From assembly GCA_964631415.1 (NCBI GenBank), contig CAZVZC010000028.1, positions 1 through 28,906 of the forward strand: a DNA stretch of 28,906 bases. Reading direction: 5' to 3'. Below are positions 14,007-28,906 of the stretch, in pieces (position 1 is the stretch's first letter; each line of letters begins with the position of its first letter). Source of the stretch: an uncultured archaeon. Its GTDB lineage: Archaea > Asgardarchaeota > Thorarchaeia > Thorarchaeales > Thorarchaeaceae. Below the pieces are notes generated by a model that made no database searches, was not told the origin of the DNA, and was given only the letters and a program-made list of their open reading frames with translations. The position numbers and the translations under genes were made by a program.

Positions 14007-16373
14007 TCAGCAAGACCTCTGGAACCTGCCGATGACATCATTCTGAACATCTTGACTCAGGTCTACAAAGCAAGCACTGTATCCAGCCACCCTCACCAGC
14101 AGATTCCGATATTCACTGGGGTTTGTTTGAGCGTCACGGAGAATCTGAGGGTCCATCATATTGAACTGAATGTGCATGCCTCCAAGCTCTACGTAGGACC
14201 TCAGCAGATTCACGAGGGAATCAAGGCCTTGTCCTCCAGAAACGAAGCCAGGTTCCAGCGAGAGTGTGAAAGCAACTCCGTTCGCATACGTTGCGTAGTC
14301 GATACCTGCAACAGAGCTAAGGGCCGCCGTCAACCCCTTCGAGGGGGCTCCAATTGCGGGAGAACATCCGTTGCTCAAGGGCGCGGTCGCTAGTCGTCCG
14401 CTGGGCAATGCACCAGTGAAGTATCCAAATGGTACGTGACTGGTGACTGAATACATGCCCGCAATGAATGATCCACCCCGGATGTTCTTGTGCTTCTCTA
14501 CCTCCTCACTGTAGATGCGTGCAACAAGCTGAGCGTATTTGTCTGCCAACTTGTCGTCATTGCCGTATTTCGGACCCTTGTTCAAAAGGAGCTGCCTGAG
14601 TGCTTCTTTTCCCTCAAACCCATGTCTTAGTGCATCCAACAGTTCTGGCATGCTTACTCTCTTCTGTGCGAAGACCAATCGGTCCATTGCGGCGAGAGAG
14701 TCTGCCACATCTGCCATTCCAACACCTTGGACCCCGGTGAAGTTGTACCTCGCAGAGCCTGTCGTTATGTCTCGGCCCGCCTCAAAGCAGTCTTCTACGC
14801 AAAGTGACAGCAACGGCGACGGCATCAGCTCCATGTTTGCGGTCTCAAAGCTGTTGGAGCCCTCGGCCATAAGTCCGACAAGGTAGGACACTTGTTTGCG
14901 GAACGCTTCAACAATCTCATCCATCGACTGGAATCTCGATGGGTCACCAGTTTCGACACCAAACTTCGTTCCTAATTGGACACTCTCGCCGTTGTTGAGG
15001 GCCAGCTCAAGGCACATCGCCAGATTGAACAGCGCTGCATCCGACGAAGTAAAGCTGGTCCCAAAAGGAGCCAGCTCAACACATCCGACAGTCGAGTAGT
15101 CCCTAGATTCCTCCAGACTTACTCTCTGTCTCTGCCATGACCCGACGATTACGTCGTCATTGAACATGGCGATGTTGTTCGCTCCGGATGCCACAGTTGA
15201 TGCGATTTCTTTCAACAGTCGTGGCGGACTCTTCCTATGGATTCTGACGTGCACGTTCGGTATTGGCAATGCTGCATTCTTGGTCGCTTCAAGTATTACA
15301 TAGGTCATCTCGTTTGTCGAGTCAAGCCCGTCTTTGTTGATACCTCCGATAGTCACTGCTTGAGTAGTCAAGAGGCCCTCAAAATACATACCAGCAACGC
15401 TGTCAAAGATTGGGACCAGATCGTTTGTCTTTATCCAGAGCATCTCTACAAGCTCTACTGCTTTCTCGTGATCCATCGTGCCTGACTTGACGTCTATTTC
15501 GTAGAATGGCTGAAGGTACTGGTCCATTCGTCCCATTGAAACAGCTTGGCCATCATACGCTTCTATGCTCAGGGCGAGATGAGTGAATCGAACAAACTGA
15601 ATAGCTTCGTGGAGGTTCCTTGGAGGTTTCGCTGGGACTCGTCGACATGCTTCAGCTATTGTTTCGAGTTCCTTCCTTCTCTCGACATTCTTCTCTCCTC
15701 GTGCCATGATTGTTGCCTTTTCGGCATAGCGTGTGGCGAACTTGACGACTGCCCGCGCGACTATCTCGGCAGCCTTGTAGAATTGCACCTTGGCGACAGA
15801 GGCAGGATCGGATCTATCAGCATATTCGCGGACCCGTTCCTCCGCGGTCGTCCCAATCTTGTCAAAGCCAACTGAGAAGAGCATTGGATAATTGATGCTC
15901 AAGTGACCGAATCCAGCCACCTCAGTGAGTACGAATACCGAACCAGTGTACAGAATGTCCATTATGTTCTTGGGAGTGTTGTGCTCGGCATGAGCCAGCA
16001 TCGATCTGTCGGTCCAGTATGATTCGATCTGCCCGCGAAGGATTTGGATGTCGTCGTCTGAAACCGCAACCGACCGGCGATCTCGTTTCTTCAGTTCTTC
16101 AAGCTCTGGAAGTATTCTCGCGCCGTGTGCTTCGGGATAGATGACGGCTCCTCGAGGTTTGTCCGATGAAACGCCCACGATAAGCTCATCTGGGAGTATC
16201 TGAACTGGCATGCCTTCCAACACGTGAGCAAGAGCCTTTGCCTGCCGAATCACTCTCGGCTCTTCTTCGGTCTGTTTCAGGGATTCGGTGTACAGCCGTA
16301 TCCGGTCCATGCACAAGCTGGTTGTTGAATCCAGCATGTTCCTCCGCAGGTTCTGTGTTCTGGTACCTGTCAT
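14007..16373 (-). CDS. Glycyl radical enzyme, single-Cys (PFL2/eliminase-like) class
   Basis: C-terminal LLVRVAGYS glycyl-radical loop, GCVE Cys loop, PKYGNDD and SMGRMDQYL motifs. Confidence 0.92.
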   Translation of the reverse strand: MTGTRTQNLRRNMLDSTTSLCMDRIRLYTESLKQTEEEPRVIRQAKALAHVLEGMPVQILPDELIVGVSSDKPRGAVIYPEAHGARILPELEELKKRDRRSVAVSDDDIQILRGQIESYWTDRSMLAHAEHNTPKNIMDILYTGSVFVLTEVAGFGHLSINYPMLFSVGFDKIGTTAEERVREYADRSDPASVAKVQFYKAAEIVARAVVKFATRYAEKATIMARGEKNVERRKELETIAEACRRVPAKPPRNLHEAIQFVRFTHLALSIEAYDGQAVSMGRMDQYLQPFYEIDVKSGTMDHEKAVELVEMLWIKTNDLVPIFDSVAGMYFEGLLTTQAVTIGGINKDGLDSTNEMTYVILEATKNAALPIPNVHVRIHRKSPPRLLKEIASTVASGANNIAMFNDDVIVGSWQRQRVSLEESRDYSTVGCVELAPFGTSFTSSDAALFNLAMCLELALNNGESVQLGTKFGVETGDPSRFQSMDEIVEAFRKQVSYLVGLMAEGSNSFETANMELMPSPLLSLCVEDCFEAGRDITTGSARYNFTGVQGVGMADVADSLAAMDRLVFAQKRVSMPELLDALRHGFEGKEALRQLLLNKGPKYGNDDKLADKYAQLVARIYSEEVEKHKNIRGGSFIAGMYSVTSHVPFGYFTGALPSGRLATAPLSNGCSPAIGAPSKGLTAALSSVAGIDYATYANGVAFTLSLEPGFVSGGQGLDSLVNLLRSYVELGGMHIQFNMMDPQILRDAQTNPSEYRNLLVRVAGYSACFVDLSQDVQNDVIGRFQRSC

Positions 16374-16467
16374 CGACGAGTCTCCAGAGGGTTGCTTCTT
16401 CTCAGTCTATTAAGTGATGCGAATCCAATTGCCCCTGTCAGCAGAGTTAGCAGACCGCCTTCTCATT

Positions 16468-17416: not shown

Positions 17417-17602
17417 CTACTTCTGAGTCACGAAGTAGAGACGCCGGCCGTTGGGGTCTGAGGGGCTGCGTTCCTGCAGTTTCTCTCAGCAGGCGCGTTC
17501 CCGTAGCTGAGCGTCGCTGAGGCACGTTCTGAGTTCTTCTGGCGTGTAGCCGCGCTCCTGATATACCTCTTCCACCCGGCTCCAGTGGTCCTTCTCTTTG
17601 TC
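17417..17602 (-). pseudogene. C-terminal remnant of a SAM methyltransferase with an internal stop
   Basis: Frame not in the ORF track reads DKEKDHWSRVEEVYQERGYTPEELRTCLSDAQLRERAC*EKLQERSPSDPNGRRLYFVTQK*, like the E-x-H-x-ER-x-Y...RxxFVxxK tail of methyltransferases; TGA at 17486-17488; no 5' part. Confidence 0.6.
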
Positions 17603-17934
17603 TCATAGAGGGGGTGGTATAATCTCAGGAGTCTGGAACGTTATGACTGATCTTCTGCTCAAATGGAGTCTACTCCCCGTCAAGTGATTATCACGGCCTC
17701 AAATTGACGCTATTGGTCATAGGGGCCTTTCAAGACCATCTCCGTAAATCGGAGCGTGCAGTTCGTCGATACGTTCGTGCTCATTTCCACCAGTCAGAAA
17801 ACGACGCAAGCCTGTCAAACCATAAGTGGACCATTGCTCTGCGCTAACCCCTGTTCCTTGCCCACGTCACCTTGACGTGAGTGTTCAGTCCCGAATACGC
17901 GGTTCATGGTTGCAGAGCTCATCATCCACAATCC

Positions 17935-18054
17935 AGAGTGCCAAACTCCTTGCACTAACATGATGCTTACGCAGCTATGAATGCCTATTCAACGGCTTTG
18001 AGCCCTAGACAAGCCCATAGCTAGGGCCCAGACTCGATACTGCTTCAGCTGCGA
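17935..18054 (+). repeat. Conserved 120-bp non-coding element, copy A
   Basis: Collinear match to 26650-26769; the 3' block matches at 37 of 43 alignment columns (manual alignment). Confidence 0.85.
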
Positions 18055-18070
18055 ATCGGAGCAATTAAAC

Positions 18071-18520
18071 TTGAATTCAGTGTTTGACGAAAGGCGCTCC
18101 GAACTGAGTGAAAGCGAGGGGCCTTCTGAGGGGCTCTTGTCATCAACCGAGATAGAAGCGGGGGAGGGGGACCACCCTGATAGTCAAGCTGACGACATCG
18201 AGGGCAGTCCTAGACAGGAGTCTATCGAAGCTGGCCGCGAATTAGAGCATGAAGAGCCCCATTCTGACACACGCGAGGACTCTCCGAGCGAAACCGAGAT
18301 GCGTCGCGAGGAAACCGAATCTGAAGAACAGACAACGGGAGCAGAGGAGGACTGGATAGAAGATCAGGAGTCTGCTGTGTTGTCAGGTCCTGAAGTGCAG
18401 CGCCTAGAATCTCGTGAGTCTGAGGAGAGTGAGGAACGCAATGAGGAGCCGTCCAAGTCCGAGCGCATCACTTCACTCGCGCATCCGCCACCTTCAGTTT
18501 CAGTGCACTCGTCATTCTGA
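18071..18520 (+). CDS. Highly acidic low-complexity protein, probably a truncated N-terminal fragment
   Basis: About 46 of 149 residues are D/E; GGAG RBS before the TTG start; composition changes abruptly in the last ~17 codons. Confidence 0.6.
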   Translation: MNSVFDERRSELSESEGPSEGLLSSTEIEAGEGDHPDSQADDIEGSPRQESIEAGRELEHEEPHSDTREDSPSETEMRREETESEEQTTGAEEDWIEDQESAVLSGPEVQRLESRESEESEERNEEPSKSERITSLAHPPPSVSVHSSF

Positions 18521-18668
18521 GGTTCACATCAGTCAATTCGCTCTCGATACCCTGAACCCATTGTAGCTGGTTGTTCCTCGTCTATTGAAATGTCACGTCC
18601 GGCCCAGTCGGCGGCTGTGTATGCCTTTGAAACGAACATTCATATGGAACCTATGGCACCGTTGATTC

Positions 18669-18777
18669 GTAGTTGAGAGCTGAGTAGAAGCACCGCCTCT
18701 GATCAGAGGTGAGATGCTCCCATCGACTGCAGATGACTTCAGTCATATGCAGGCAATCCCACTCAGCTCTCTACTAC
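18669..18777. ncRNA. Candidate structured small RNA (cloverleaf-like multibranch fold)
   Basis: Closing stem GTAGTTGAGAGCTGAGT/ACTCAGCTCTCTACTAC (16 of 17 bp) enclosing three hairpins. Confidence 0.5.
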
Positions 18778-18840
18778 ACCAGCGGAATTCTGTCATATAT
18801 CGATTCCCAATGGGCCAGAATCAGGCTCTCGTCCGAAGAC

Positions 18841-18846
18841 TTATAT
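18841..18846 (+). promoter_or_regulatory. TATA box of the secreted-protein gene
   Basis: TTATAT preceded by purine-rich CGAAGAC (BRE-like), ~80 bp upstream of ATG 18924. Confidence 0.5.
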
Positions 18847-18923
18847 CCGCGTGAGGAGTTTCCGCACAGTGGGATGTGATGGGAGCATCTGCAGTGCATC
18901 TGTACTTGCAGGTAGATGAGAGA

Positions 18924-19586
18924 ATGAAGAGATCGTGGTTTACTCTTAGCAGCAGTATTCTTGTGCTGTTTGCTGTTATGGGCTATATGACTAATCCTGT
19001 CGCTGCCGTGTTCTTCGGAAACGACACACCGCCTTATGGATGGTCTACGACCGACCAAGCGGGCAACTTCGCGTCATGTTCGAAGGATGCAACAACAGGG
19101 GAGTGTTGGATCCAGGTCGACCCACTGAGTTGGCCTTGGTGGTATGAGGGCGGAACTTGGTCAGCTGCAGTAATCGGAGCAGTGTACACAACGGACCAAT
19201 CAGTGACAGCAACTTGGTACTTCCTATCATCTTGGGACCTTGACTATCGACTGAATTGCGGATGGGGCGGAAGTGTGACGATTAGCGTCGTCTATCGTGT
19301 CTACAACGCAAACCAAGAGAGAATTGCGGACACAACTGCTTGGAGCAAGACTTGGGTTGGTCCTGCGTTCAGTTGGGATGATTGGGATGAAGAGATATCA
19401 AAGGATATCTACAAGTCCTTCACATTGGACCTTAGTAATGGGCAGACCTACTATTTCGCTGTTGGACTCAAGGTGTGCATCAACAACGACTCTGGAGCCA
19501 TCGATGTCAATGCCAATAGTGACAATAGTGAACCTGCTCTGCTCACGGTGGACAGTATCACATGGACTTTAGTCCCGCCTGAGTAG
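18924..19586 (+). CDS. Secreted Trp/Asp-rich, probably beta-rich protein of unknown function
   Basis: MKRSWFTLSSSILVLFAVMGYMTNPVAA signal peptide; 4 Cys; no C-terminal TM anchor. Confidence 0.8.
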   Translation: MKRSWFTLSSSILVLFAVMGYMTNPVAAVFFGNDTPPYGWSTTDQAGNFASCSKDATTGECWIQVDPLSWPWWYEGGTWSAAVIGAVYTTDQSVTATWYFLSSWDLDYRLNCGWGGSVTISVVYRVYNANQERIADTTAWSKTWVGPAFSWDDWDEEISKDIYKSFTLDLSNGQTYYFAVGLKVCINNDSGAIDVNANSDNSEPALLTVDSITWTLVPPE

Positions 19587-19597
19587 CAATGACTAGT

Positions 19598-19636
19598 GAC
19601 GCTGAGAACATCGGTTCCAGCGTCCTCCCCCTTTCC
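19598..19636 (+). terminator. Stem-loop plus pyrimidine tract after the secreted-protein gene
   Basis: GACGCTG(A)GAAC-atcg-GTTCCAGCGTC followed by CTCCCCCTTTCC. Confidence 0.55.
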
Positions 19637-19640
19637 AGTG

Positions 19641-19650
19641 GATATATATC
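19641..19650 (+). promoter_or_regulatory. TATA box (GATATATATC) for the ABC operon
   Basis: AT-alternating box immediately after the terminator, ~110 bp upstream of the ABC ATPase. Confidence 0.45.
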
Positions 19651-19756
19651 GTGCTCAGACTGTAGCTGGCGAGCCTTGATTGCACAGTCTATCGAGGACG
19701 TGGTATCATAGTTGCATCGACATGCAACCTAGTCGTGGATTGGACGGTAACGGGTC

Positions 19757-20725
19757 ATGAAGTCAGTTGGTTCGAATATCATCAAGATTGATGGACTGGT
19801 CAAGGACTATCTCTCGATTGGCCGCGCCGGAGCTCGTCCGAAGCTATCGAGAGTGAGAGCACTATCAGGAGTGCAGGGAGTCTTCGACGGGGGGATACTC
19901 GGTCTTGTTGGACCGAACGGTGCAGGAAAGAGCACTCTGATTCAGATAATGGCAGGGGTGCTCAAGGCCACAAGAGGCTCTCTGACCATCTTCGACATGG
20001 ACTCCTGGAGGTCCACGAAGAACATCAAGAAACGAGTGGCCTTTCTCATGGAGGAGCCGGAGTATCCTCCTCTTGCAGGATTGCGCTTCCTGAGGTACGT
20101 TGGGGAACTCAGGGGCATGGACCGGATTTCAGCAGAGCGTCACGCACGGGATGCTCTTGAGCGTATTGGGATGGCTGACAGTGGCAGGCGTTCGATCACC
20201 TCGTACTCTGCAGGGATGAGGCGGAGACTGGGCATTGCGACTGCATTCATCGGCGACCCCGCGTTGATAGTGCTGGACGAGCCTGCAAAGACCCTCGATC
20301 CCCAAGGAAGGCATCTCCTGAGCAGTCTCATATCTGATGCACACCGTGAGCATGGGACCAGCTTCGTGATATCGAGTCACATACTCTCGGATCTGGAGCG
20401 CATCTGTACCGAGGCGTGGGTCTTGCATCGCGGCGAGTTCGTTGTCAAGGGAACGATCGCAGAGATATCTGAGCGCTTCAGACCAGACCTGTTTGTGGTT
20501 GAGGTCGACCGGCCCCAACTGATGTTCGAGAGGATGAGCGAACTGGTCCCTGGCCGTGTCACAATCCAGGGGCATCGACTGACAATACAGGGCGACCCTG
20601 AGCAGGTTTCAAGGATGGTTTCGGACACTGTCGCCGCACTGGGGCTCGTTCTACGCAAGTTCGAGCCGGCCATGGGCGAACTCGAGCGAGTACTGTTCGG
20701 AGGGGAGTCAGATGCAGTCGGATAG
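19757..20725 (+). CDS. ABC-2 type exporter ATP-binding subunit
   Basis: Walker A GPNGAGKS, signature YSAGMRRR, Walker B LIVLDEP, H-loop SSH. Confidence 0.95.
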   Translation: MKSVGSNIIKIDGLVKDYLSIGRAGARPKLSRVRALSGVQGVFDGGILGLVGPNGAGKSTLIQIMAGVLKATRGSLTIFDMDSWRSTKNIKKRVAFLMEEPEYPPLAGLRFLRYVGELRGMDRISAERHARDALERIGMADSGRRSITSYSAGMRRRLGIATAFIGDPALIVLDEPAKTLDPQGRHLLSSLISDAHREHGTSFVISSHILSDLERICTEAWVLHRGEFVVKGTIAEISERFRPDLFVVEVDRPQLMFERMSELVPGRVTIQGHRLTIQGDPEQVSRMVSDTVAALGLVLRKFEPAMGELERVLFGGESDAVG

Positions 20726-21629
20726 GCGCTCCTTCCGGACACTTCCGAGAGCAATTGTCCAGACGGTGCACGAACTGAGGGTTGTTTCTTCTCTTCTCAT
20801 GAGAGCGAATCTGAAACGATTGCCTCTCTTGTTCCTTGTCCTCGCTTCACTTGTTTCCCTGATACCGTTCCTCAACACGTTCGCATGGCAAGCAGGCAAT
20901 CCCGAGGGGGGAATCCTGGAGCATGCGTCTCGGAGGGACTCGCCTGAGTTCACGATATACACCAGTGCAGAGGTCATCTCACTGACCATTCGAGGCCTCG
21001 GATACTTCACCAATCTTGCTGTGTTCTACGTCGTGTTCCTTGGCCTGTCGGACAGGTTGATCCGGGAGGACCGAACAATCATCACTCTGCCGGTGGGCAA
21101 TGGCGTGCTGGCCATCGCGAGGCTTCTTGCAGTGATAGTCCCGGTCCTTCTGGCCCGGGTGACACTTGTCCTACTCGGTCTCGGAGCCTACTTGGTATTG
21201 CTCTCCGGGTCCAGCTCTGGTTTCGTGGTCCAGTTCCTCTTCACCGTGTGGGCACCCGTGCTTGTGGTGCTGATACATGATCTCTTCCTCTATACAGCAG
21301 TCTTCCTTCTTGGCCGCATCCTCCGGAACCTGATTCTGGGAGTCGTTGCAGCCTATGCCATCGTGTTTCCGACTCCGATCAACGACTTCTTGTACAATGG
21401 CATATTCGCGAGGGTTCCGGGAGGCGTACTCGACTCAGAAACTGCTGTACTGTACCTGTTCTACTCGGTGATGCAGCCGAGCCAGTACGCCTATACTGGT
21501 TGGCAGGCCGCCCTCGGCACCGATTTCGCGACAACGCAGCTGGCCGGGGTATTCTCACTGTGGGTCCTCGGGGCGGTATTACTCCTGCCTGTTGCCGTGG
21601 CGGTCGTCCGAAGGTTCACGAGGGGCTGA
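20712..21629 (+). CDS. ABC-2 type permease-like membrane protein
   Basis: About 6 TM segments, REDRTIITLPV motif, overlaps the ATPase stop. Confidence 0.75.
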   Translation: MQSDRRSFRTLPRAIVQTVHELRVVSSLLMRANLKRLPLLFLVLASLVSLIPFLNTFAWQAGNPEGGILEHASRRDSPEFTIYTSAEVISLTIRGLGYFTNLAVFYVVFLGLSDRLIREDRTIITLPVGNGVLAIARLLAVIVPVLLARVTLVLLGLGAYLVLLSGSSSGFVVQFLFTVWAPVLVVLIHDLFLYTAVFLLGRILRNLILGVVAAYAIVFPTPINDFLYNGIFARVPGGVLDSETAVLYLFYSVMQPSQYAYTGWQAALGTDFATTQLAGVFSLWVLGAVLLLPVAVAVVRRFTRG

Positions 21630-21632
21630 TTG

Positions 21633-22430
21633 ATGGCCCGCTACTTCCATGGCATCATGAAGACTCTCTACAGAGGAGTCTTGCTGGTTCGTGTGTCAGG
21701 CGTGGCCATGTCCCTGCTTCTCTCACTTGTCTTGCTCACGCTGTTCAGGTTGCCGCTTGTCTACGTGGTCCAAGAGTCCACCAGCACTCTCGACTTCATC
21801 ATCGGTTCGCTTCAGTTTGAGTTCTTCATGGGCGGGAGTCTTCTCATCAGTCTGCTGATACTGTCTGCAGCAGTCTACAGAGTACTGCTATACGAGAAAC
21901 AGCTGAGGGGAGATGCACAGATACTTCTCCAGCCCGTCAGCGCCGTCTGGCTCTATGGGACTCGCTACATTCTCCTCGTGGCTTTGATATCTCTGTACGG
22001 CCTCATTGTCTTCGTGAGCTACTGGCTATCGTTTCTGGTCATCGCGGACACCGCGGTTCTTGAGTTCGGCATCCTTGCGACGCTGGTATCGGTCTTCTCT
22101 GGTTTCATGATGCTTTCCGCAGGCCTCCTTCTGTTTGCAGCTCCAATGAACGCCCTTCAAAAGGGGCCTCTGCTTCTTCTACTCGTGGTACTCAGCAATC
22201 TCTCTCTGTCACAGCAGAGTAGTGCACTGAGTGGGTTCCTCGGTTTCTTCATACCATCTCTACGGCCGTGTTTCTCAGAGGGCGTCATGGACATCTTGGA
22301 CCAGGCCAATGGTGAAACTATCGAGTTCTCCCTTATGCCGTTCGGACTTCTGATTGCTCTGATCCTTGGATCACTCGCACTCGCCTATACTTCGTTGAAG
22401 CACACCGAGATACTGCGACAAGGTTCCTGA
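21633..22430 (+). CDS. ABC-2 type permease-like membrane protein
   Basis: About 6 TM segments, EKQLRGDAQILLQPVS motif, starts 3 nt after the preceding permease stop. Confidence 0.75.
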   Translation: MARYFHGIMKTLYRGVLLVRVSGVAMSLLLSLVLLTLFRLPLVYVVQESTSTLDFIIGSLQFEFFMGGSLLISLLILSAAVYRVLLYEKQLRGDAQILLQPVSAVWLYGTRYILLVALISLYGLIVFVSYWLSFLVIADTAVLEFGILATLVSVFSGFMMLSAGLLLFAAPMNALQKGPLLLLLVVLSNLSLSQQSSALSGFLGFFIPSLRPCFSEGVMDILDQANGETIEFSLMPFGLLIALILGSLALAYTSLKHTEILRQGS

Positions 22431-22977
22431 GTGTGATGGTGCACCCCAAGCGGGAAACCTACGATTGTTTCGCATCTGGCCAGCGTATCTAGTTTCGGAA
22501 GGTGCATTCAGTGAACACTAGCTACGCTTGGGCAGCACTGTTCCTAGGTCTGGATGCAGGATTTTTGCCGAGCAGCCAAGAAACTAGGATGGAACCTGAG
22601 GGCGAAGGAGTTCAAGGGGGTCAGACTGGCGGTCTAGGACTATGACTGTTTCTTGAGAAACCAGAGAGGTCTGCAGAAGTTATGCACATCGACAACGGGT
22701 TCGTTCCTGTGAAAGCCAGATTGACTTCTACCAGAGTCTGCTGCATTTCGCGGCTTAAGAAAGCAGGTCACAGGTCTCCGGACAGCCCGTGCGCAGTGCC
22801 GGAATCATCTCACGTGCACCTATTCTGACTGAAACCGAGTGTGCTAGGCTAAGGCGAGGTGTTCGCCATCTAAGCCACACGCTTGTGAGAATACCTTACT
22901 GGGTATTGCCTGAGCACCAAGGAGTGCCTACTGCAGAAGGACCTGCCTTGGCGCTTCAAGATGCGGTTGAGTCGGCC

Positions 22978-23211
22978 ATGGCCATGGAAACCGAAAGACG
23001 TAGCCGTGACTGCGACTCGTTCACCGAGGAGAAGTCTGGCCCGGGCTACCACAGGGGAGAATGCCTGCACGAGAAACGGAACTCGGTCTCGCGGGACGAC
23101 GAGCCCACGCGTTTCCTCCCCATCTATCAGCCGGACAACCCGACACAGTGTCGCTTCTTCAGTCCAAACAAGAAGAGGCCAGCATGTGTCCAGACCACAC
23201 TAGACTTCTAG
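22978..23211 (+). CDS. Small Cys-containing protein (degenerate Zn-finger-like) with C-terminal QTTLDF
   Basis: RDCDSF...GECLH...QCRFFSP; start at MAMETE within ORF 22789..23211. Confidence 0.4.
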   Translation: MAMETERRSRDCDSFTEEKSGPGYHRGECLHEKRNSVSRDDEPTRFLPIYQPDNPTQCRFFSPNKKRPACVQTTLDF

Positions 23212-23216
23212 GTCCT

Positions 23217-23313
23217 GTCACTCACCCACTCCACTTCGACTATTCCGCAAGCGTCCGAAGAGGCATGTCGTCACGCACCCACTCCACCTTGACAACTCCG
23301 TAAGCGTCCAAAG
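23217..23313. repeat. Tandem 44-bp imperfect direct repeat (period 53 bp)
   Basis: 23217-23260 vs 23270-23313, 37 of 44 identical. Confidence 0.85.
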
Positions 23314-23548
23314 CCTTACCCATGCCTCGTTTCCTGCAAATCCGCAGGACTCTTGCGGAATAGCTGCGGCAACGTAGTTGCCCCAGTTTCTTTTTGACTT
23401 CCTGCCTGAACTGCTTTGTCCAGAGCCATTTCTTCCTGACAGGAAAGACGATGACACTGCCGCGCTGCTCATGCGCGAAGACGAAATCAAATCCATTTTC
23501 GAGTATGTCCCTCATCTTGTCGACGGGAGGATTGTCACATCCTGACAT
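23240..23548 (-). CDS. Hypothetical basic protein
   Basis: Open frame with a GGAGTGTG RBS before ATG 23548; protein-like composition. Confidence 0.55.
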   Translation of the reverse strand: MSGCDNPPVDKMRDILENGFDFVFAHEQRGSVIVFPVRKKWLWTKQFRQEVKKKLGQLRCRSYSARVLRICRKRGMGKALDAYGVVKVEWVRDDMPLRTLAE

Positions 23549-23721
23549 GAAGACCGCCACACTCCTAGGTCAGGCTATTCAGCATGGGGAATGATCTCTG
23601 TCCCACCGACCAAGCCACCATGCATTCTGTCAAGACTCAAGAGAATAGGAATCTTGCCCGGCCGTTAGCGGGCCTCGTGAAACCGCCACACTCTTAACAC
23701 TGAAGACACAAACTGTCCGTC

Positions 23722-24480
23722 ATGCCTCGTGTGCTGACAGTCGAGTGGGGAGGAAGAGGAGAGCCCAGCTCTGCCCGTGAGGCCGACAGGCTGGCCCTCT
23801 CACTCGGTCCACGCAAGAGGCTCTCGGCGAAGGACCTTGCTCAGGTCAAGGAGTGGAAGCGTGAGAGGCTGACACTGAAGAGCAGTCAGGACGGAGGCAT
23901 CGGGCCGAGCCGAGCGATCATGTACGAAACCTCATGGGCGGTCCTCTACAGCCCGCAGAGAGTTGTGTTCCGAGAAAGCAGCTTCAGCGCGAGCGACAGC
24001 ACCGAAGAGCTTGCACCTTGGCAGATACCGGTTTCACATATGCAGATAGTCGGCGAGGTCGCGAGGGGCCTCTTCGGCGCACACCGCTTCAAGGGCGTCA
24101 GGTTGTACGGCGACCGCCACATAGACAGCGGTGCGAGGTTGCATCTTGTGACTCTGAGGGAGAAGTCAAGCAGAGAGAAGAGGGCGATGGTCTTTGACGA
24201 GGCGGACGACGCCAAGCTCATGGTACTCCTGGCACGAGTCTTGGACAAGACTGAGCTTGAGACAGTGTCCGACGAGGTACTTGTGCCTAGGGTCGCGTAC
24301 AAGAGGGCGCCCTCAGGGGTGTCGGGACCAACGGCTCTCATGGACCTAGCCAGAGAGAACAGCATGAGGCAGAGGTACAGGCTGGACCGGCTGAAGGCAC
24401 AGGTGAAGAGGGGGCGCGAGGCCAAGGTCCTGATTGACCGCATCGAGAGAGAGGCGAAGTCTTCCGGAATCACACCATGA
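23722..24480 (+). CDS. Hypothetical protein
   Basis: 252-aa ORF with coding-like codon usage and a TTAACA TATA-like box ~25 bp upstream. Confidence 0.7.
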   Translation: MPRVLTVEWGGRGEPSSAREADRLALSLGPRKRLSAKDLAQVKEWKRERLTLKSSQDGGIGPSRAIMYETSWAVLYSPQRVVFRESSFSASDSTEELAPWQIPVSHMQIVGEVARGLFGAHRFKGVRLYGDRHIDSGARLHLVTLREKSSREKRAMVFDEADDAKLMVLLARVLDKTELETVSDEVLVPRVAYKRAPSGVSGPTALMDLARENSMRQRYRLDRLKAQVKRGREAKVLIDRIEREAKSSGITP

Positions 24481-24526
24481 CGTAGCATGCTCGTTATCCC
24501 TGTAGGAGCTTATTAGGCACAGGACG

Positions 24527-24620
24527 ACCTCAGGTCCGTGGTGCGGGCTCAATAACTGCTCTTGTCATCTCTTCCAAGACCCCTGTTTCTGAAACGCATG
24601 AGCCCCACCACAGCTGAGGT
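24527..24620 (+). promoter_or_regulatory. Structured leader whose 3' arm pairs the GAGGT(G) RBS of 24630..24854
   Basis: ACCTCAG/CTGAGGT, GTGGTG/CACCAC and GGGCTCA/TGAGCCC stacked helices plus two short inner hairpins. Confidence 0.5.
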
Positions 24621-24629
24621 GCATGTGGT

Positions 24630-24854
24630 ATGGAACAGTCGAGCAAGATGAACGAGAAATGGATGTCTGAGAAGTACGACGAGCGACAGCTGAGAGCGAT
24701 AGTTGAGGTCCTTGAGAGCTTCGACACGCAGGAATGGGACGTGGACTTGGACGAGCTTGGTCTATGCGATGCTTCCGCGGATGTGGCATCAGCCCTGAAG
24801 ACCGCCAGAGAGGTCCTTCAGATGAAGGAGGCGTGCAAGTGGATTGCCCATTAG
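24630..24854 (+). CDS. Small acidic hypothetical protein
   Basis: GAGGTG RBS 8 nt before ATG; its stop overlaps the next ORF. Confidence 0.6.
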   Translation: MEQSSKMNEKWMSEKYDERQLRAIVEVLESFDTQEWDVDLDELGLCDASADVASALKTAREVLQMKEACKWIAH

Positions 24855-25371
24855 GTTCTTCGATGATGTACAGGAGGCCATCGACGACATCTACAGCCGA
24901 CGTGCGGAGGCTGACTCTGTGATACTTCGCTGGCAGTGGGCACTCCCGAGAGCGGGGACATACGCCATCCGTATCGCCGACGGCGTGTTAATCTATACTA
25001 AGATCGTGGAGGAACTGAAGGCGCCACACCTGCGGGGCTTCGTGTTCGGGAAACACTACAGGATAGTTTCGAACGTGATTTCAAACGGTGTTGGGATTCT
25101 CCGAACGGAATCGATTACTCGTGCCTCACAGCTGCCGGTGCTCAAACATGCGGTCGATCGGTTGGGCCGCCTTCAAGAGATAGTGGAGATGATTGCCTCG
25201 ATGAAGTGGAAGCCTGTTTCAGAGGACGAACGCGAAATCATACTTCATCTGCACAGACAAGGACATACTCTCGGGGAGATTACATCCCTGCTTTGGGCCG
25301 AATTGGGCATAGCTCGCCGGCCGTCAACCGTAAAGGGCGTCATCGGAAGAGGAGCCGGGACTGGCAAGTAG
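24844..25371 (+). CDS. Probably chimeric ORF: virus/plasmid-type N-terminal fragment fused in frame to a small HTH protein (25201..25371)
   Basis: C-terminal VSEDEREIILHLHRQGHTLGEITSLL..RRPSTVKGVI resembles IS30/HTH_38-type HTH; an internal GGAG RBS precedes ATG 25201. Confidence 0.55.
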   Translation: MPIRFFDDVQEAIDDIYSRRAEADSVILRWQWALPRAGTYAIRIADGVLIYTKIVEELKAPHLRGFVFGKHYRIVSNVISNGVGILRTESITRASQLPVLKHAVDRLGRLQEIVEMIASMKWKPVSEDEREIILHLHRQGHTLGEITSLLWAELGIARRPSTVKGVIGRGAGTGK

Positions 25372-25675
25372 TGTGTTAGCTAGGCTCAACAGAACCTTCA
25401 AAACGTACTATCTTTGCTCGCTAGTCGGCTGAAAGGACGAGTAGAGTGAGATAAGCCATGCCAGACAAGAGATCTGAGCAAGTCCAGAGAAAGCGCGAGG
25501 AGCTCACATCAATCTGTTTCAGGGACTCAGTATACACACATACCCACGCGATGCACAAGCTAGTCATTGAGCCCAGTAGGGGACCTTGCAGCCTGTGTGT
25601 TGTCGTGCCTATCATCGCGGCCCTCCATAAGAAGCCGTCCGGTCAGTCTACTGACCAATGTGCATCCAATTGGGA

Positions 25676-25958
25676 GAAGAAGCACAGGCGGTGCTTTCTC
25701 CTGATGCACTTTCTGAGATTCCGTTTGTTGTCTGGGCGAAGGAAGGAAGAGAATACGGCCTAGGAGCAATCATGATCACTCAACAGCCCGGTGCAATCCC
25801 GACGAACTCCTAAGTCAAGGTGACAACTTCTTCGCTTTCCACCTGGTTTCCAGTTCAGATTTGGCGCGTTTCAGAAGGGCTAACGCGCACTACTCTTCTG
25901 ATATCCTAACCGCCATCGTGAACGAACCCATCAAGGGCAACTGCTACTACTGGTCTTC
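25676..25958 (+). pseudogene. Frameshifted C-terminal remnant of a HerA/DUF87-family ATPase
   Basis: EEAQAVL..PFVVWAKEGREYGLGAIMITQQPGAIP then a 1-nt deletion at ~25799-25800, continuing DELLSQGDNFFAFHLVSSSDLARFRRANAHYSSDILTAIVNEPIKGNCYYWS (Walker B, KEGRKY-like and TQQP motifs). Confidence 0.8.
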
Positions 25959-26119
25959 CCCGAAGCTCTCTTTCCAATGAGGGCAAGACTGAGAAACTTG
26001 GGGGATTCTCCTGTCGCTTGTTCGAAGTAGTACTTGACTTCTTCCAGCTCCCTTTTCCGTCCGGCGAAGAATCTCCGGTTTCTTATCGGTTTCGTGAAGT
26101 CATAGGGATTTGTTGGCAC
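25949..26119 (-). pseudogene. N-terminal remnant of an archaeal AAA/STAND-type ATPase
   Basis: NPYDFTKPI..FFAGRKRELEEV..LALIGKRASGKTS, truncated immediately after Walker A; TATA-like ATATAA ~30 bp upstream. Confidence 0.8.
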
Positions 26120-26520
26120 GTCTATTCATATTGGGTTACGAAGTTTTTCTTATATGCATTGCACATTACCAACCCGTGTGTGAAACGGACGAAGGCATGA
26201 CGCCCACCGGTTGCCGGCTATCTGGAGGTTTCTGGTGGCAGTGCTTTCCAACCTTACATGCAAGGGAGCCTATGCCGTGGTGCCTGTTTTCATTCCTGCT
26301 CTCATGGAAGCTTATTATGTCATCCCACGTGTCGTTTCTGGTTTATCAGGTCCAAGGTAATGTTTCTGAAACAAAGGAACTGCGCATCGCTTCTCCCCTT
26401 TAAGCGCAATAGATGAAATCTTAGCATCGGCTCTGAATGTAGTCCTAATCACTCTGACGCATCTGAAGCATCATCGGCAGAACCAATGCCAAAGACCACG
26501 TCTTACTATTGGATTGCTGG

Positions 26521-26542
26521 CTTGGTGCTCTGGGGCACCAAG
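26521..26542. repeat. 8-bp perfect inverted repeat CTTGGTGC-N6-GCACCAAG
   Basis: Directly visible; lies ~110 bp upstream of conserved element copy B. Confidence 0.5.
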
Positions 26543-26649
26543 AACGCTTGGGAACTTCCGCCATGATCGGCAAAGGTAAGCGTATGCACGAGTTCAATCG
26601 AACTCCGAATCGAAGGGCCCAGGGACGTCAAGTTTTTCATTTGCGGCCG

Positions 26650-26769
26650 AAAGTGCTGAACTCCGTGCATCCATCTGGCACTCTGACCGCTATCAATACC
26701 GTTTCGATGATTTTCGTAGTCATGAGTGCCCAATAGCTAGGGGCAAGACTCGATACTGGTTCACTACGA
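26650..26769 (+). repeat. Conserved 120-bp non-coding element, copy B
   Basis: Collinear match to 17935-18054. Confidence 0.85.
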
Positions 26770-26868
26770 GCTTGGAGGCAGAAGGTGTGGTTTTGACTTC
26801 TCACGAAGGGCATATGACGAACCATGCACCAGCCAGTGTTGTCGTCTAAGGTAGGTGAAGTCCAGACT

Positions 26869-28906
26869 ATGCCCCGTCAGCCCGGTACCGGTTCTTTTGT
26901 GTCGAAAATGCTCTGTGTCCTCATCCTCACCCTACTGCCAGTATTCTTGATTGGTGACCTGCTTGCTTCATTGGGCTTTGTGCCTGCGATGCTACGCTCC
27001 ATTGGGATGCTTTTTGCTGCGTGTTGTTTCCTAGTTGGCGCATGTGCCATGGCGTTCATCGGCGTGTCTAGGAACAAGATCATGATCTGGCTCAGTGGCC
27101 TTGCAGCTACAATTGTGGTTGTAGCAGCCAGCGCAGTGCTCATTCTGGGACAGCTCGCTATGATTTACCCCGTCGAAGCATTGATCACGACTCTCGTAGC
27201 TGTGTCCCTTCTCTTCGCCCTTAGTAGTCGAAGGGGGCAACGCGATGCACCAAGCGTTATGTATACTAAGGCATCGCCTTTGGGCGCGGTCGTTACTTCT
27301 GCCAAGATCTCACTTCGGTCGGTCGACCTAGTGAAAGGGGTTGAGGTCGTCGGGATCCCTGACGAATACCTGGGGCTCTCCGAAGAAGCGCCCCGGTCTA
27401 GAGCCAAGAGCCAGCCCTTCTACAATCTGTTACGAGTTCTCATGGTTGCTGGTGTCCCATTGGCCTTGCGGTTGGAACGCCACTCTGGCAAGACGCGTGT
27501 CTACTACCTGACTTGGTCCCATGATGCACAGAAGATGGTATACTACGAACAGTCATTGGTTGATGCAGTACGGGCTCATCTTCCCCAGTTCGACGTCCGG
27601 ATCGTGGACGCGCTTGGACCGCTTTCGATAGACTCACAGGACATCGGAATAGCAGTCCACCTCCATGGCGAGCCGCTATCATATGAGGAAGAGAAACAGC
27701 GGGTCGACAGCCTCACGGTCATGGCGGATGTCCTCCAGCAGCTTGACAACGGAATCATTCAGGCCCATGCGATTCCCTACGAGGCAAGCGGCTCAGAACT
27801 CAGGGCGACAGAACGAGACTATCAGAAACAGATGGAACAGTCCCAACGAACAGTTTCGACATCTAATCGTGCACTCCTAGCAGAGCAGTCCCAGCTATCA
27901 ACCACCCGGGTGGATGTGCGGGCGTCCCGCCTAGCGTCCCAGACTCTTCAAGATGTCAAGAGACTGAGCAGCCGGTATCTCTGTAGAGCCGGCGTGACTG
28001 CAGCCTGTTGGGATCGAGACGACAGGCGAGCAGAGCGAAACGCTCGTAGACTCATGGACGTCTTGATGGGCACGCTCGCACCTGCTGCAAAGGAGAAGGA
28101 CTTCTCTGTCACCTTGAGAAAGAGCAAGTCAGAGTTCGAGAGAGTGTGTCGGGGGCTCCCCAGCTCTGAGCTCACAGTCCTCACTCCTGAGGAGGCTGCT
28201 GTCTTCTTCGTGCTTCCGGAGCGCGACCTTGGCATAAGGGTCAGTAAGAGGAGTTCCTTTTCCTCCGGCTCTGCCTCAGTCATAGACACTCACGCCCAAG
28301 AGAACTCAATACCGTTGCCTGCTACGCCGCCGCAGCAGCCAGTCATAGAGGCTCCGTGGTCTAGACCTGTGGCACAGTGGAAATACGACTTCGGGAGGAC
28401 CATATTGCTTGGTTACCCGTTGAACTCGGCGGGTGAACCAATCTGTGACCGGCCGATCGGGATGCGTGTTGACATGATGGACTCCCACACATACATTGGA
28501 GGAGGGACGCGGTCAGGCAAGAGCACGACGGGAATCTGCATCTCGGCACAGAGCTCAAGACTGGCCATCCCTCCCGTGGTCCTTGCAGGATCAAAAGGAC
28601 TGGAGTGGGCCGTGCTTCTGGCGGTAGACCCTGATGCGAGAGTGTTCACTCCTGGGGACCCGGGCATCGCTCCGCTCTGCTTCAATGTCTTCCGTCCTCC
28701 TCCGGGTGTTCCAGTACACAGATGGCTCGATCGGCTCGTAAATGTGTTCTGCTCTTGGATGCCCAATGACGGTGTCCTAAAGATGCATTTTGAGGACGTG
28801 TTCTACACCGCATATCGCCGGTGCGGCTGGAGCGTCAGTGACAACACGCACGGGCGGGAGATGACGCTGGTCGATCTGTACGAGGCCGCCATGGAGGTCT
28901 CAAGAA
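26869..28906 (+). CDS. Membrane-anchored HerA/VirB4/VirD4-superfamily P-loop ATPase (partial, runs off window; absent from ORF track)
   Basis: Stop-free frame of 679 codons after an AGGTGA RBS; ~4 N-terminal TM helices; LTVLTPEEAAVFFVLP; Pro-rich linker; ILLGY..SHTYIGGGTRSGKSTT (Walker A 28501-28524); FTPGDPGIAPLCFNVF. Confidence 0.88.
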   Translation, partial: MPRQPGTGSFVSKMLCVLILTLLPVFLIGDLLASLGFVPAMLRSIGMLFAACCFLVGACAMAFIGVSRNKIMIWLSGLAATIVVVAASAVLILGQLAMIYPVEALITTLVAVSLLFALSSRRGQRDAPSVMYTKASPLGAVVTSAKISLRSVDLVKGVEVVGIPDEYLGLSEEAPRSRAKSQPFYNLLRVLMVAGVPLALRLERHSGKTRVYYLTWSHDAQKMVYYEQSLVDAVRAHLPQFDVRIVDALGPLSIDSQDIGIAVHLHGEPLSYEEEKQRVDSLTVMADVLQQLDNGIIQAHAIPYEASGSELRATERDYQKQMEQSQRTVSTSNRALLAEQSQLSTTRVDVRASRLASQTLQDVKRLSSRYLCRAGVTAACWDRDDRRAERNARRLMDVLMGTLAPAAKEKDFSVTLRKSKSEFERVCRGLPSSELTVLTPEEAAVFFVLPERDLGIRVSKRSSFSSGSASVIDTHAQENSIPLPATPPQQPVIEAPWSRPVAQWKYDFGRTILLGYPLNSAGEPICDRPIGMRVDMMDSHTYIGGGTRSGKSTTGICISAQSSRLAIPPVVLAGSKGLEWAVLLAVDPDARVFTPGDPGIAPLCFNVFRPPPGVPVHRWLDRLVNVFCSWMPNDGVLKMHFEDVFYTAYRRCGWSVSDNTHGREMTLVDLYEAAMEVSR

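Follow-up and report, generated by a model that had tools for sequence, protein, structure and literature searches.

A diverged repeat pair on a Thorarchaeota contig very probably represents the leaders of two ATPase cassettes, one of them broken

An operon duplicate that decays within a genomic island can leave a pseudogene remnant joined at a microhomology. In polymorphic effector and toxin loci, a constant front is combined with an exchangeable nuclease end. The archaeal Ced and Ted DNA-import systems require a pilin and a VirB6-like channel (PMC9905601). We analysed a contig of an uncultured thorarchaeon (CAZVZC010000028.1, 28,906 nt; the whole contig is referred to as the window) from a 2.16-Mb genome assembly (G000, 85% complete), which a named homologue and family-wide matches likewise mark as of Thorarchaeota type. 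The window carries a diverged repeat of about 120 bp, with one copy at 17935–18054 (copy B), ahead of a short acidic open reading frame (ORF), and the other at 26650–26769 (copy B′), ahead of a gene for a membrane ATPase. A first-pass annotation had taken this repeat for a promoter and operator under selection and common to the two genes, which would then belong to one regulon. Our analysis indicates instead that the two copies are very probably the paralogous leaders of two cassettes, each made up of the ATPase (F2) and a giant acidic protein (F1), and that one of these cassettes is broken.

The locus shares several properties with a decayed operon duplicate: its upstream DNA is paralogous and has diverged about as far as synonymous sites, the gene fragments keep their original order, the join shows a short in-register microhomology, and there are other scars nearby. 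It differs in that the leader (60%) and the F1 piece joined to it (97%) apparently descend from cassette lineages of unequal divergence. With polymorphic effector and toxin loci, F1 appears from its sequence to share an acidic N-terminus and an exchangeable C-terminal nuclease-like end, next to a translocase-like ATPase; this likeness concerns the cassette, not the 120-bp repeat. The features discussed below are as follows (HTH, helix-turn-helix; BRE, B recognition element; loci of relatives carry L numbers and their proteins P numbers):

17935–18085, plus strand: copy B, leader of the broken cassette, homologous to 26650–26801 and ending at the likely core promoter
18086–18095, plus strand: junction formed by deletion or recombination, F1-internal GACGAAAGGC against leader CACGAAGGGC (26802–26811)
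18086–18470, plus strand: internal F1 fragment from the acidic region, the bulk of the 149-aa ORF at 18071–18520
25061–25371, plus strand: what remains of the F1 C-terminus, namely the last part of the LAGLIDADG region and the HTH (residues 1234–1337, 104 residues)
25372–25502, plus strand: spacer and first ~15 codons of a truncated acyl-CoA carboxylase (Carboxyl_trans), a gene that follows F1 in relatives
26647–26799, plus strand: copy B′, the distal part of the leader in the second cassette, 71% identical to L046 over 26650–26769
26652–26669, plus strand: block 1, the only one of three blocks kept in distant leaders
26800–26824, plus strand: most conserved stretch of the leader, outside the 120-bp repeat and probably the core promoter (BRE/TATA) for the ATPase operon
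26854–26858, plus strand: Shine-Dalgarno site GGTGA of the ATPase, invariant in six of six intact leaders
26869–28906, plus strand: F2, a membrane-anchored VirB4/HerA-like ATPase, cut by the contig end, 90% identical to P0001

In Thorarchaeota relatives the cassette is made up, in this order, of a ~220-nt leader, the membrane VirB4/HerA-like ATPase F2 and the giant acidic HTH/LAGLIDADG protein F1. The closest intact relatives, on metagenome contigs, encode a 1055-aa ATPase (90% identical) that is overlapped at its stop by a 1335-aa F1. An acidic ORF starts −17 to +18 nt from the ATPase stop in 32 of the 33 evaluable locus rows, some of which are duplicates of one locus. The first-pass annotation was therefore right that the ATPase and the acidic protein belong together, but they are linked as an operon and not as a regulon.

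The loci L046, L052 and L054 align with the window without gaps over 2260 nt from 26647 into the ATPase; for L046 against 26647–28906, blastn gave 87% identity and 0 gaps, with the leader running straight into the gene. Copy B′ is therefore the distal part of the ~220-nt leader of the ATPase. Homologues of B′ precede the ATPase in L046, L052, L053 and L054 and occur nowhere else in those loci. The first-pass annotation was right to place this stretch in cis upstream of the ATPase and to argue against a recent duplication.

Copy B aligns to the leader as far as about 18085, at which point the F1-internal decamer GACGAAAGGC lies exactly in register with the leader decamer CACGAAGGGC (8 of 10 positions match; chance 4e-4). 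It follows that copy B led a second cassette and is now fused to mid-F1 sequence. The 149-aa ‘acidic gene’ (18071–18520) is chimeric: 5 of its codons are leader DNA, 128 come from the interior of F1 and ~16 do not belong to F1. Its bulk, at 18086–18470, shows 96–97% DNA identity to the F1 interior (residues ~306–433) of L046, L050, L051 and L052, and its cluster mates are all 1335 aa long. Copy B′ does stand before the ATPase, as annotated, but the ORF after copy B is a fragment of F1 and not the start of a gene. One Logan contig, which may be from the source sample, spans 17896–18448, including copy B and the join at 18086, with zero differences.

The C-terminus of F1 and its usual downstream neighbour reappear 6.6 kb further on. 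The remnant at 25061–25371 has 87% protein identity to P0006, and the DNA match covers 25061–25502. L046 and L051 run on from the equivalent of 25372–25502 into a full carboxylase gene (the Pfam label is from a paralogue in L052). All the pieces keep their original order and strand, namely leader, F1 306–433, F1 1234–1337 and carboxylase start, and they end in sharp junctions at 18086, 18470, 25061 and 25502, where intact relatives continue. Sediment contigs of relatives diverge from the window at 17601, 18470 and 25502.

These arrangements suggest the following history. From about 17601 the window would be a genomic island holding two copies of a patchy Thorarchaeota cassette, of which the right copy starts at 26647 and looks intact to the contig end. 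In the left copy, we infer a repair event, either deletion or inter-cassette recombination at the ~10-nt microhomology, that would have fused the leader at 17935–18085 to mid-F1. The join would have cost the left copy its ribosome site and probable core promoter, the whole of F2 and 305 F1 codons. In a second event, F1 residues 434–1233 would have been swapped for unrelated DNA encoding a secreted protein and an ATP-binding cassette (ABC) transporter. The distal leader in copy B is most likely a relic.

Copies B and B′ align without gaps over their first ~82 nt, close to the ~80 nt originally reported, followed by one 1-nt gap. Identity is 73 of 119 columns (61%) over 17935–18054 and 26650–26769, and the homology extends to about 18086/26802, further than the first-pass annotation had placed it. 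Block 3 does give 37 of 43 columns, with two gaps required, and the repeat does contain the TGC-N10-GCA dyad and the GCCC/GGGC and GCTAT/ATAGC complementarities. In register, copy B is 59–61% identical to B′, L046 and L053, with a local alignment z>22 versus shuffles. Mismatches between B and B′ fall in clusters (p 0.002 in a runs test, p 0.012 for the best 34-nt window), but this clustering was absent with a third homologue (runs p 0.60 for B′ and 0.96 for B, each versus L046). Moreover, B′ and L046 agree at 85 of 120 positions over 26650–26769 (71%), versus 74% at fourfold sites of the adjoining ATPase (Fisher p 0.55). Against this third homologue the three-block pattern is not significant, and in distant copies it is blocks 2 and 3 that are conserved least. 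Block-like conservation in a two-copy alignment therefore needs a third homologue before it is read as constraint; about three independent close leaders were available here.

A search of the 2.16-Mb assembly with copy B found B′ at nhmmer E 1.1e-6 and a next match at E 2.7, so that the assembly holds two copies, B and B′. Elsewhere, BLAST of copy B against 60 relatives gave no match, nor did a pattern search allowing 3 mismatches in 85 family genomes, and the exact block-3 pattern was absent from viral contigs. Two sets of candidates were rejected: a single metagenome match of the exact block-3 pattern, which covers block 3 only and was judged to be chance, and 18 marginal matches (E 0.004–0.09) of a sequence-only model from four leaders in the family genomes, all of which lie within long ORFs and none near an ATPase. 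The scan for further copies that the first-pass annotation had proposed therefore yielded none in this genome and only chance-level, intragenic matches in the 85 family genomes.

Several observations weigh against the duplicated, broken operon as described. Copy B and the L046 leader share only ~60% identity, whereas the F1 piece behind copy B is 97% identical to L046 F1; the left copy would therefore be a mosaic cassette or the product of recombination between two cassettes. Mosaic cassettes were seen, the F1 C-terminus of the window being 87% identical to L051 and 68% to L046. No intact B-type cassette was found. The leader is almost free of insertions and deletions over ~215 nt, with a fixed length, and in some pairings the blocks are slightly better kept than the spacers (p 0.03–0.25). 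Compared with distant sister-lineage leaders (L047, L055 and L036), identity is 40–46%, where shuffled sequences give 30% and fourfold sites 32%, and the L047 and L055 leaders are 75% alike versus 60% at fourfold sites (p 0.009).

Since its length is kept and its identity to the sister lineage exceeds that of shuffles and fourfold sites, the leader appears to be under weak constraint and not wholly neutral. Between lineages, identity is 0.61 for block 1, 0.34 for block 2 and 0.35 for block 3, the block 1 value being inflated by an alignment gap; without gaps, block 1 of L036 matches L047 and L055 at 12–14 of 18 positions. Block 1 is thus the best candidate for a real binding site. The distal leader would then belong to the upstream part of the promoter, the weak constraint on it would bear mostly on spacing, and a factor might bind at block 1.

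The original proposal of a selected promoter and operator that the ATPase has in common with a short acidic gene, itself genuine, in one regulon is highly improbable. It is consistent with the clustered identity between B and B′, with a GGAG and a TTG that by chance stand 9 nt apart before the 149-aa frame, and with the TATA-like look of block 2 in L053. However, it fails because what was taken for a second gene comes from inside F1, the downstream partner of the ATPase itself, and because all other homologues precede the ATPase. The chimeric make-up of the 149-aa ORF, its cluster mates of 1335 aa, the lack of a third copy in the genome and the loss of clustering in the comparisons with L046 all argue against it. 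We would give as little credence to a structured non-coding RNA with a hairpin and a pseudoknot. The 12 proposed pairs can form in 94% of cells over four sequences, with two G–U-preserving changes, but a high pairing fraction is expected because the pairs were picked from shared columns, and no compensatory change was found at any of the 12 in the four sequences; no pair covaries. Single-sequence folding gave z −1.8 for copy B but +0.7 for B′, consensus folds are weak (−11 to −12 kcal/mol), Rfam and ARAGORN gave no match on the element, and the pairs sit in blocks 2 and 3, which distant leaders have not kept. A hidden small ORF or decayed coding sequence was rejected, as mismatches are spread evenly over the three phases (p 0.3–0.97; one distant pair p 0.03) and no reading frame is open in all leaders. 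The end of a miniature inverted-repeat transposable element or insertion sequence was rejected as well: there are two copies only, no terminal inverted repeat shared with the right end, and no similarity between left and right ends above shuffles.

A different kind of explanation gives the left edge of the leader (about 26647/17932, with block 1) a function, either as the end of a mobile cassette that lacks a relaxase or as the origin from which it is transferred. We consider this unlikely, and it is compatible with the duplicated-leader explanation, to which it would add a function. The site would be recognised by the HTH and LAGLIDADG domains of F1, the DNA would be moved by the ATPase, and in copy B the end of a defunct cassette would have been preserved. 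The three unrelated flanks of B, B′ and L046 lose homology no more than ~15 nt apart, with none further upstream; block 1 is the part kept at depth; and the cassette is patchy, multicopy and adjoins restriction-modification or CRISPR islands. Yet an edge of constraint would look identical, homology reaches ~130 nt further upstream in the sister lineage (L047/L055), and no inverted or direct repeat links the left and right ends. Neither is a motif shared among 27 family leaders clearly above shuffles (52.8 versus 42–50), nor was an integrase seen in the cassette at the loci read, nor a relative in viral contigs. Slightly more doubtful still is the fuller claim that the left edge and block 1 act in cis as the end or transfer origin of a mobile cassette of Asgard archaea that has neither relaxase nor integrase and has not been described. 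If it held, a homing-endonuclease-like acidic-leader protein would recognise or cut the site, DNA or the nuclease would pass between cells by way of a VirB4-like membrane motor, and the site would be the first candidate DNA substrate for the ATPase–acidic nuclease system.

As the trace of a duplicated and broken operon, the repeat itself carries little weight. For the Thorarchaeota ATPase–acidic nuclease cassette it is of more use: the left edge is delimited, a likely promoter (26800–26824) and a candidate operator (block 1) are indicated, a defined ~220-bp DNA is available as a candidate binding target of F1, and cassettes are seen to stack, recombine and decay in islands.

The stretch at 26800–26824 is identical at 25 of 25 positions in the window, L046 and L053 (p 5e-4 at a 72% background) and is lacking in copy B. 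It lies ~55 nt before the ATPase ATG and looks BRE/TATA-like in L047 and L055, and this position and appearance suggest a core promoter. With a genome-trained promoter matrix it was the top plus-strand score in 5 of 6 leaders, although the matrix is weak and the score lies within background. The GGAG motif reported after both copies is present (18058 for B and 26774 for B′). However, the one at 26774 lies ~95 nt from the ATPase start and is therefore not its ribosome site, a role filled by the GGTGA at 26854.

The predicted structure of F2 (predicted local distance difference test 69, predicted template modelling score 0.42) has four N-terminal helices at hydrophobic sequence. In a Foldseek search, the best match of this model was TrwK/VirB4 (E 4e-11), followed by HerA, and Pfam DUF87 was found on P0002, an F2 relative. 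F2 is membrane anchored, and its predicted fold resembles VirB4/TrwK of type IV secretion over the whole length and HerA over the motor. It scores 15–19 bits against NCBIfam CedB/CedD cut-offs of 600–700, which sets it apart from archaeal CedB/TedB (PMC9905601), and no conserved pilin or VirB6-like channel family was found beside F2 in 9 loci, by BLAST clustering only. F2 also differs from the VirB4 and Ced systems in its constant partner, a giant acidic nuclease-like protein. The HerA anti-phage systems (Sir2-HerA/Nezha, HerA-DUF4297 and MADS mad8) gave weak profile or structure matches to the F2 motor; F2 lies far below cut-off, has four transmembrane helices and a VirB4-like N-terminal domain, and no partner genes of these systems were recognised with it.

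F1 consists of an acidic front and exchangeable ends, two of which are LAGLIDADG-like types. In L043 (12644–14500) the protein in the F1 position continues from the acidic front into many short helical repeats and an HNH-like domain, in place of LAGLIDADG. The cassette would most likely be a selfish one whose job is to transfer DNA or effectors. ATPase homologues are present in 41 of the 85 family genomes, patchily and often in multiple copies, and several loci have a ~200-aa gene 3′ of F1, while those of the L046/L051 type are without a third gene. In the literature on Thorarchaeota with VirB4, HerA or LAGLIDADG, no description of the cassette was found, and PMC11529989 does not contain these terms.

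In L052 (14–736) and L046 (15957–16277), an island with the cassette and an Eco57I-type methylase/HATPase operon lies between two acyl-CoA carboxylase genes. These are ~72% alike and one is 3′-truncated, as if the island had entered by recombination within the gene. In the sister lineage, a complete type I CRISPR-Cas locus and array lie directly upstream of the cassette leader (L047, 1–9770; L055, 1–9700; L077 is identical to L055). The CRISPR parts of L047 and L055 are 94% alike, then ~400 nt differ, and the match resumes ~350 nt before the ATPase.

Immediately to the left of copy B, 17830–17930 can fold into a stable branched hairpin (z −3.8 on the plus strand and −3.0 on the minus). The minus strand has AUGAUGA and CUGA and a sub-threshold match to the C/D-box small RNA sR28 (E 1.2). 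No homologue of 17600–17935 was found in the 85 family genomes. The DNA inside the broken F1 encodes, at 18876–22430, a secreted Trp-rich protein, an ABC ATPase and two permeases, the latter paralogous to permeases on contigs C2 and C31. The interval 23722–24480 encodes a 252-aa protein of no known family, with homologues (~30% identity) in two other genomes (L039 and L040). There they lie 1–1.4 kb upstream of the ATPase in divergent orientation, so the gene may be an accessory gene of the cassette.

A second diverged pair, at 16271–16431 and 25513–25672, is 68% identical over 161 nt. The former is the 5′ end and upstream DNA of a glycyl radical enzyme gene (14007–16373, minus strand); the latter is what is left of a paralogue, a remnant that is frameshifted and joined head-on to the truncated carboxylase start at 25502. 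It is followed at 25676–26119 by convergent fragments, a HerA-like C-terminus on the plus strand, outside the F2 family (best E 0.6), and the N-terminus of an AAA-type ATPase on the minus strand.

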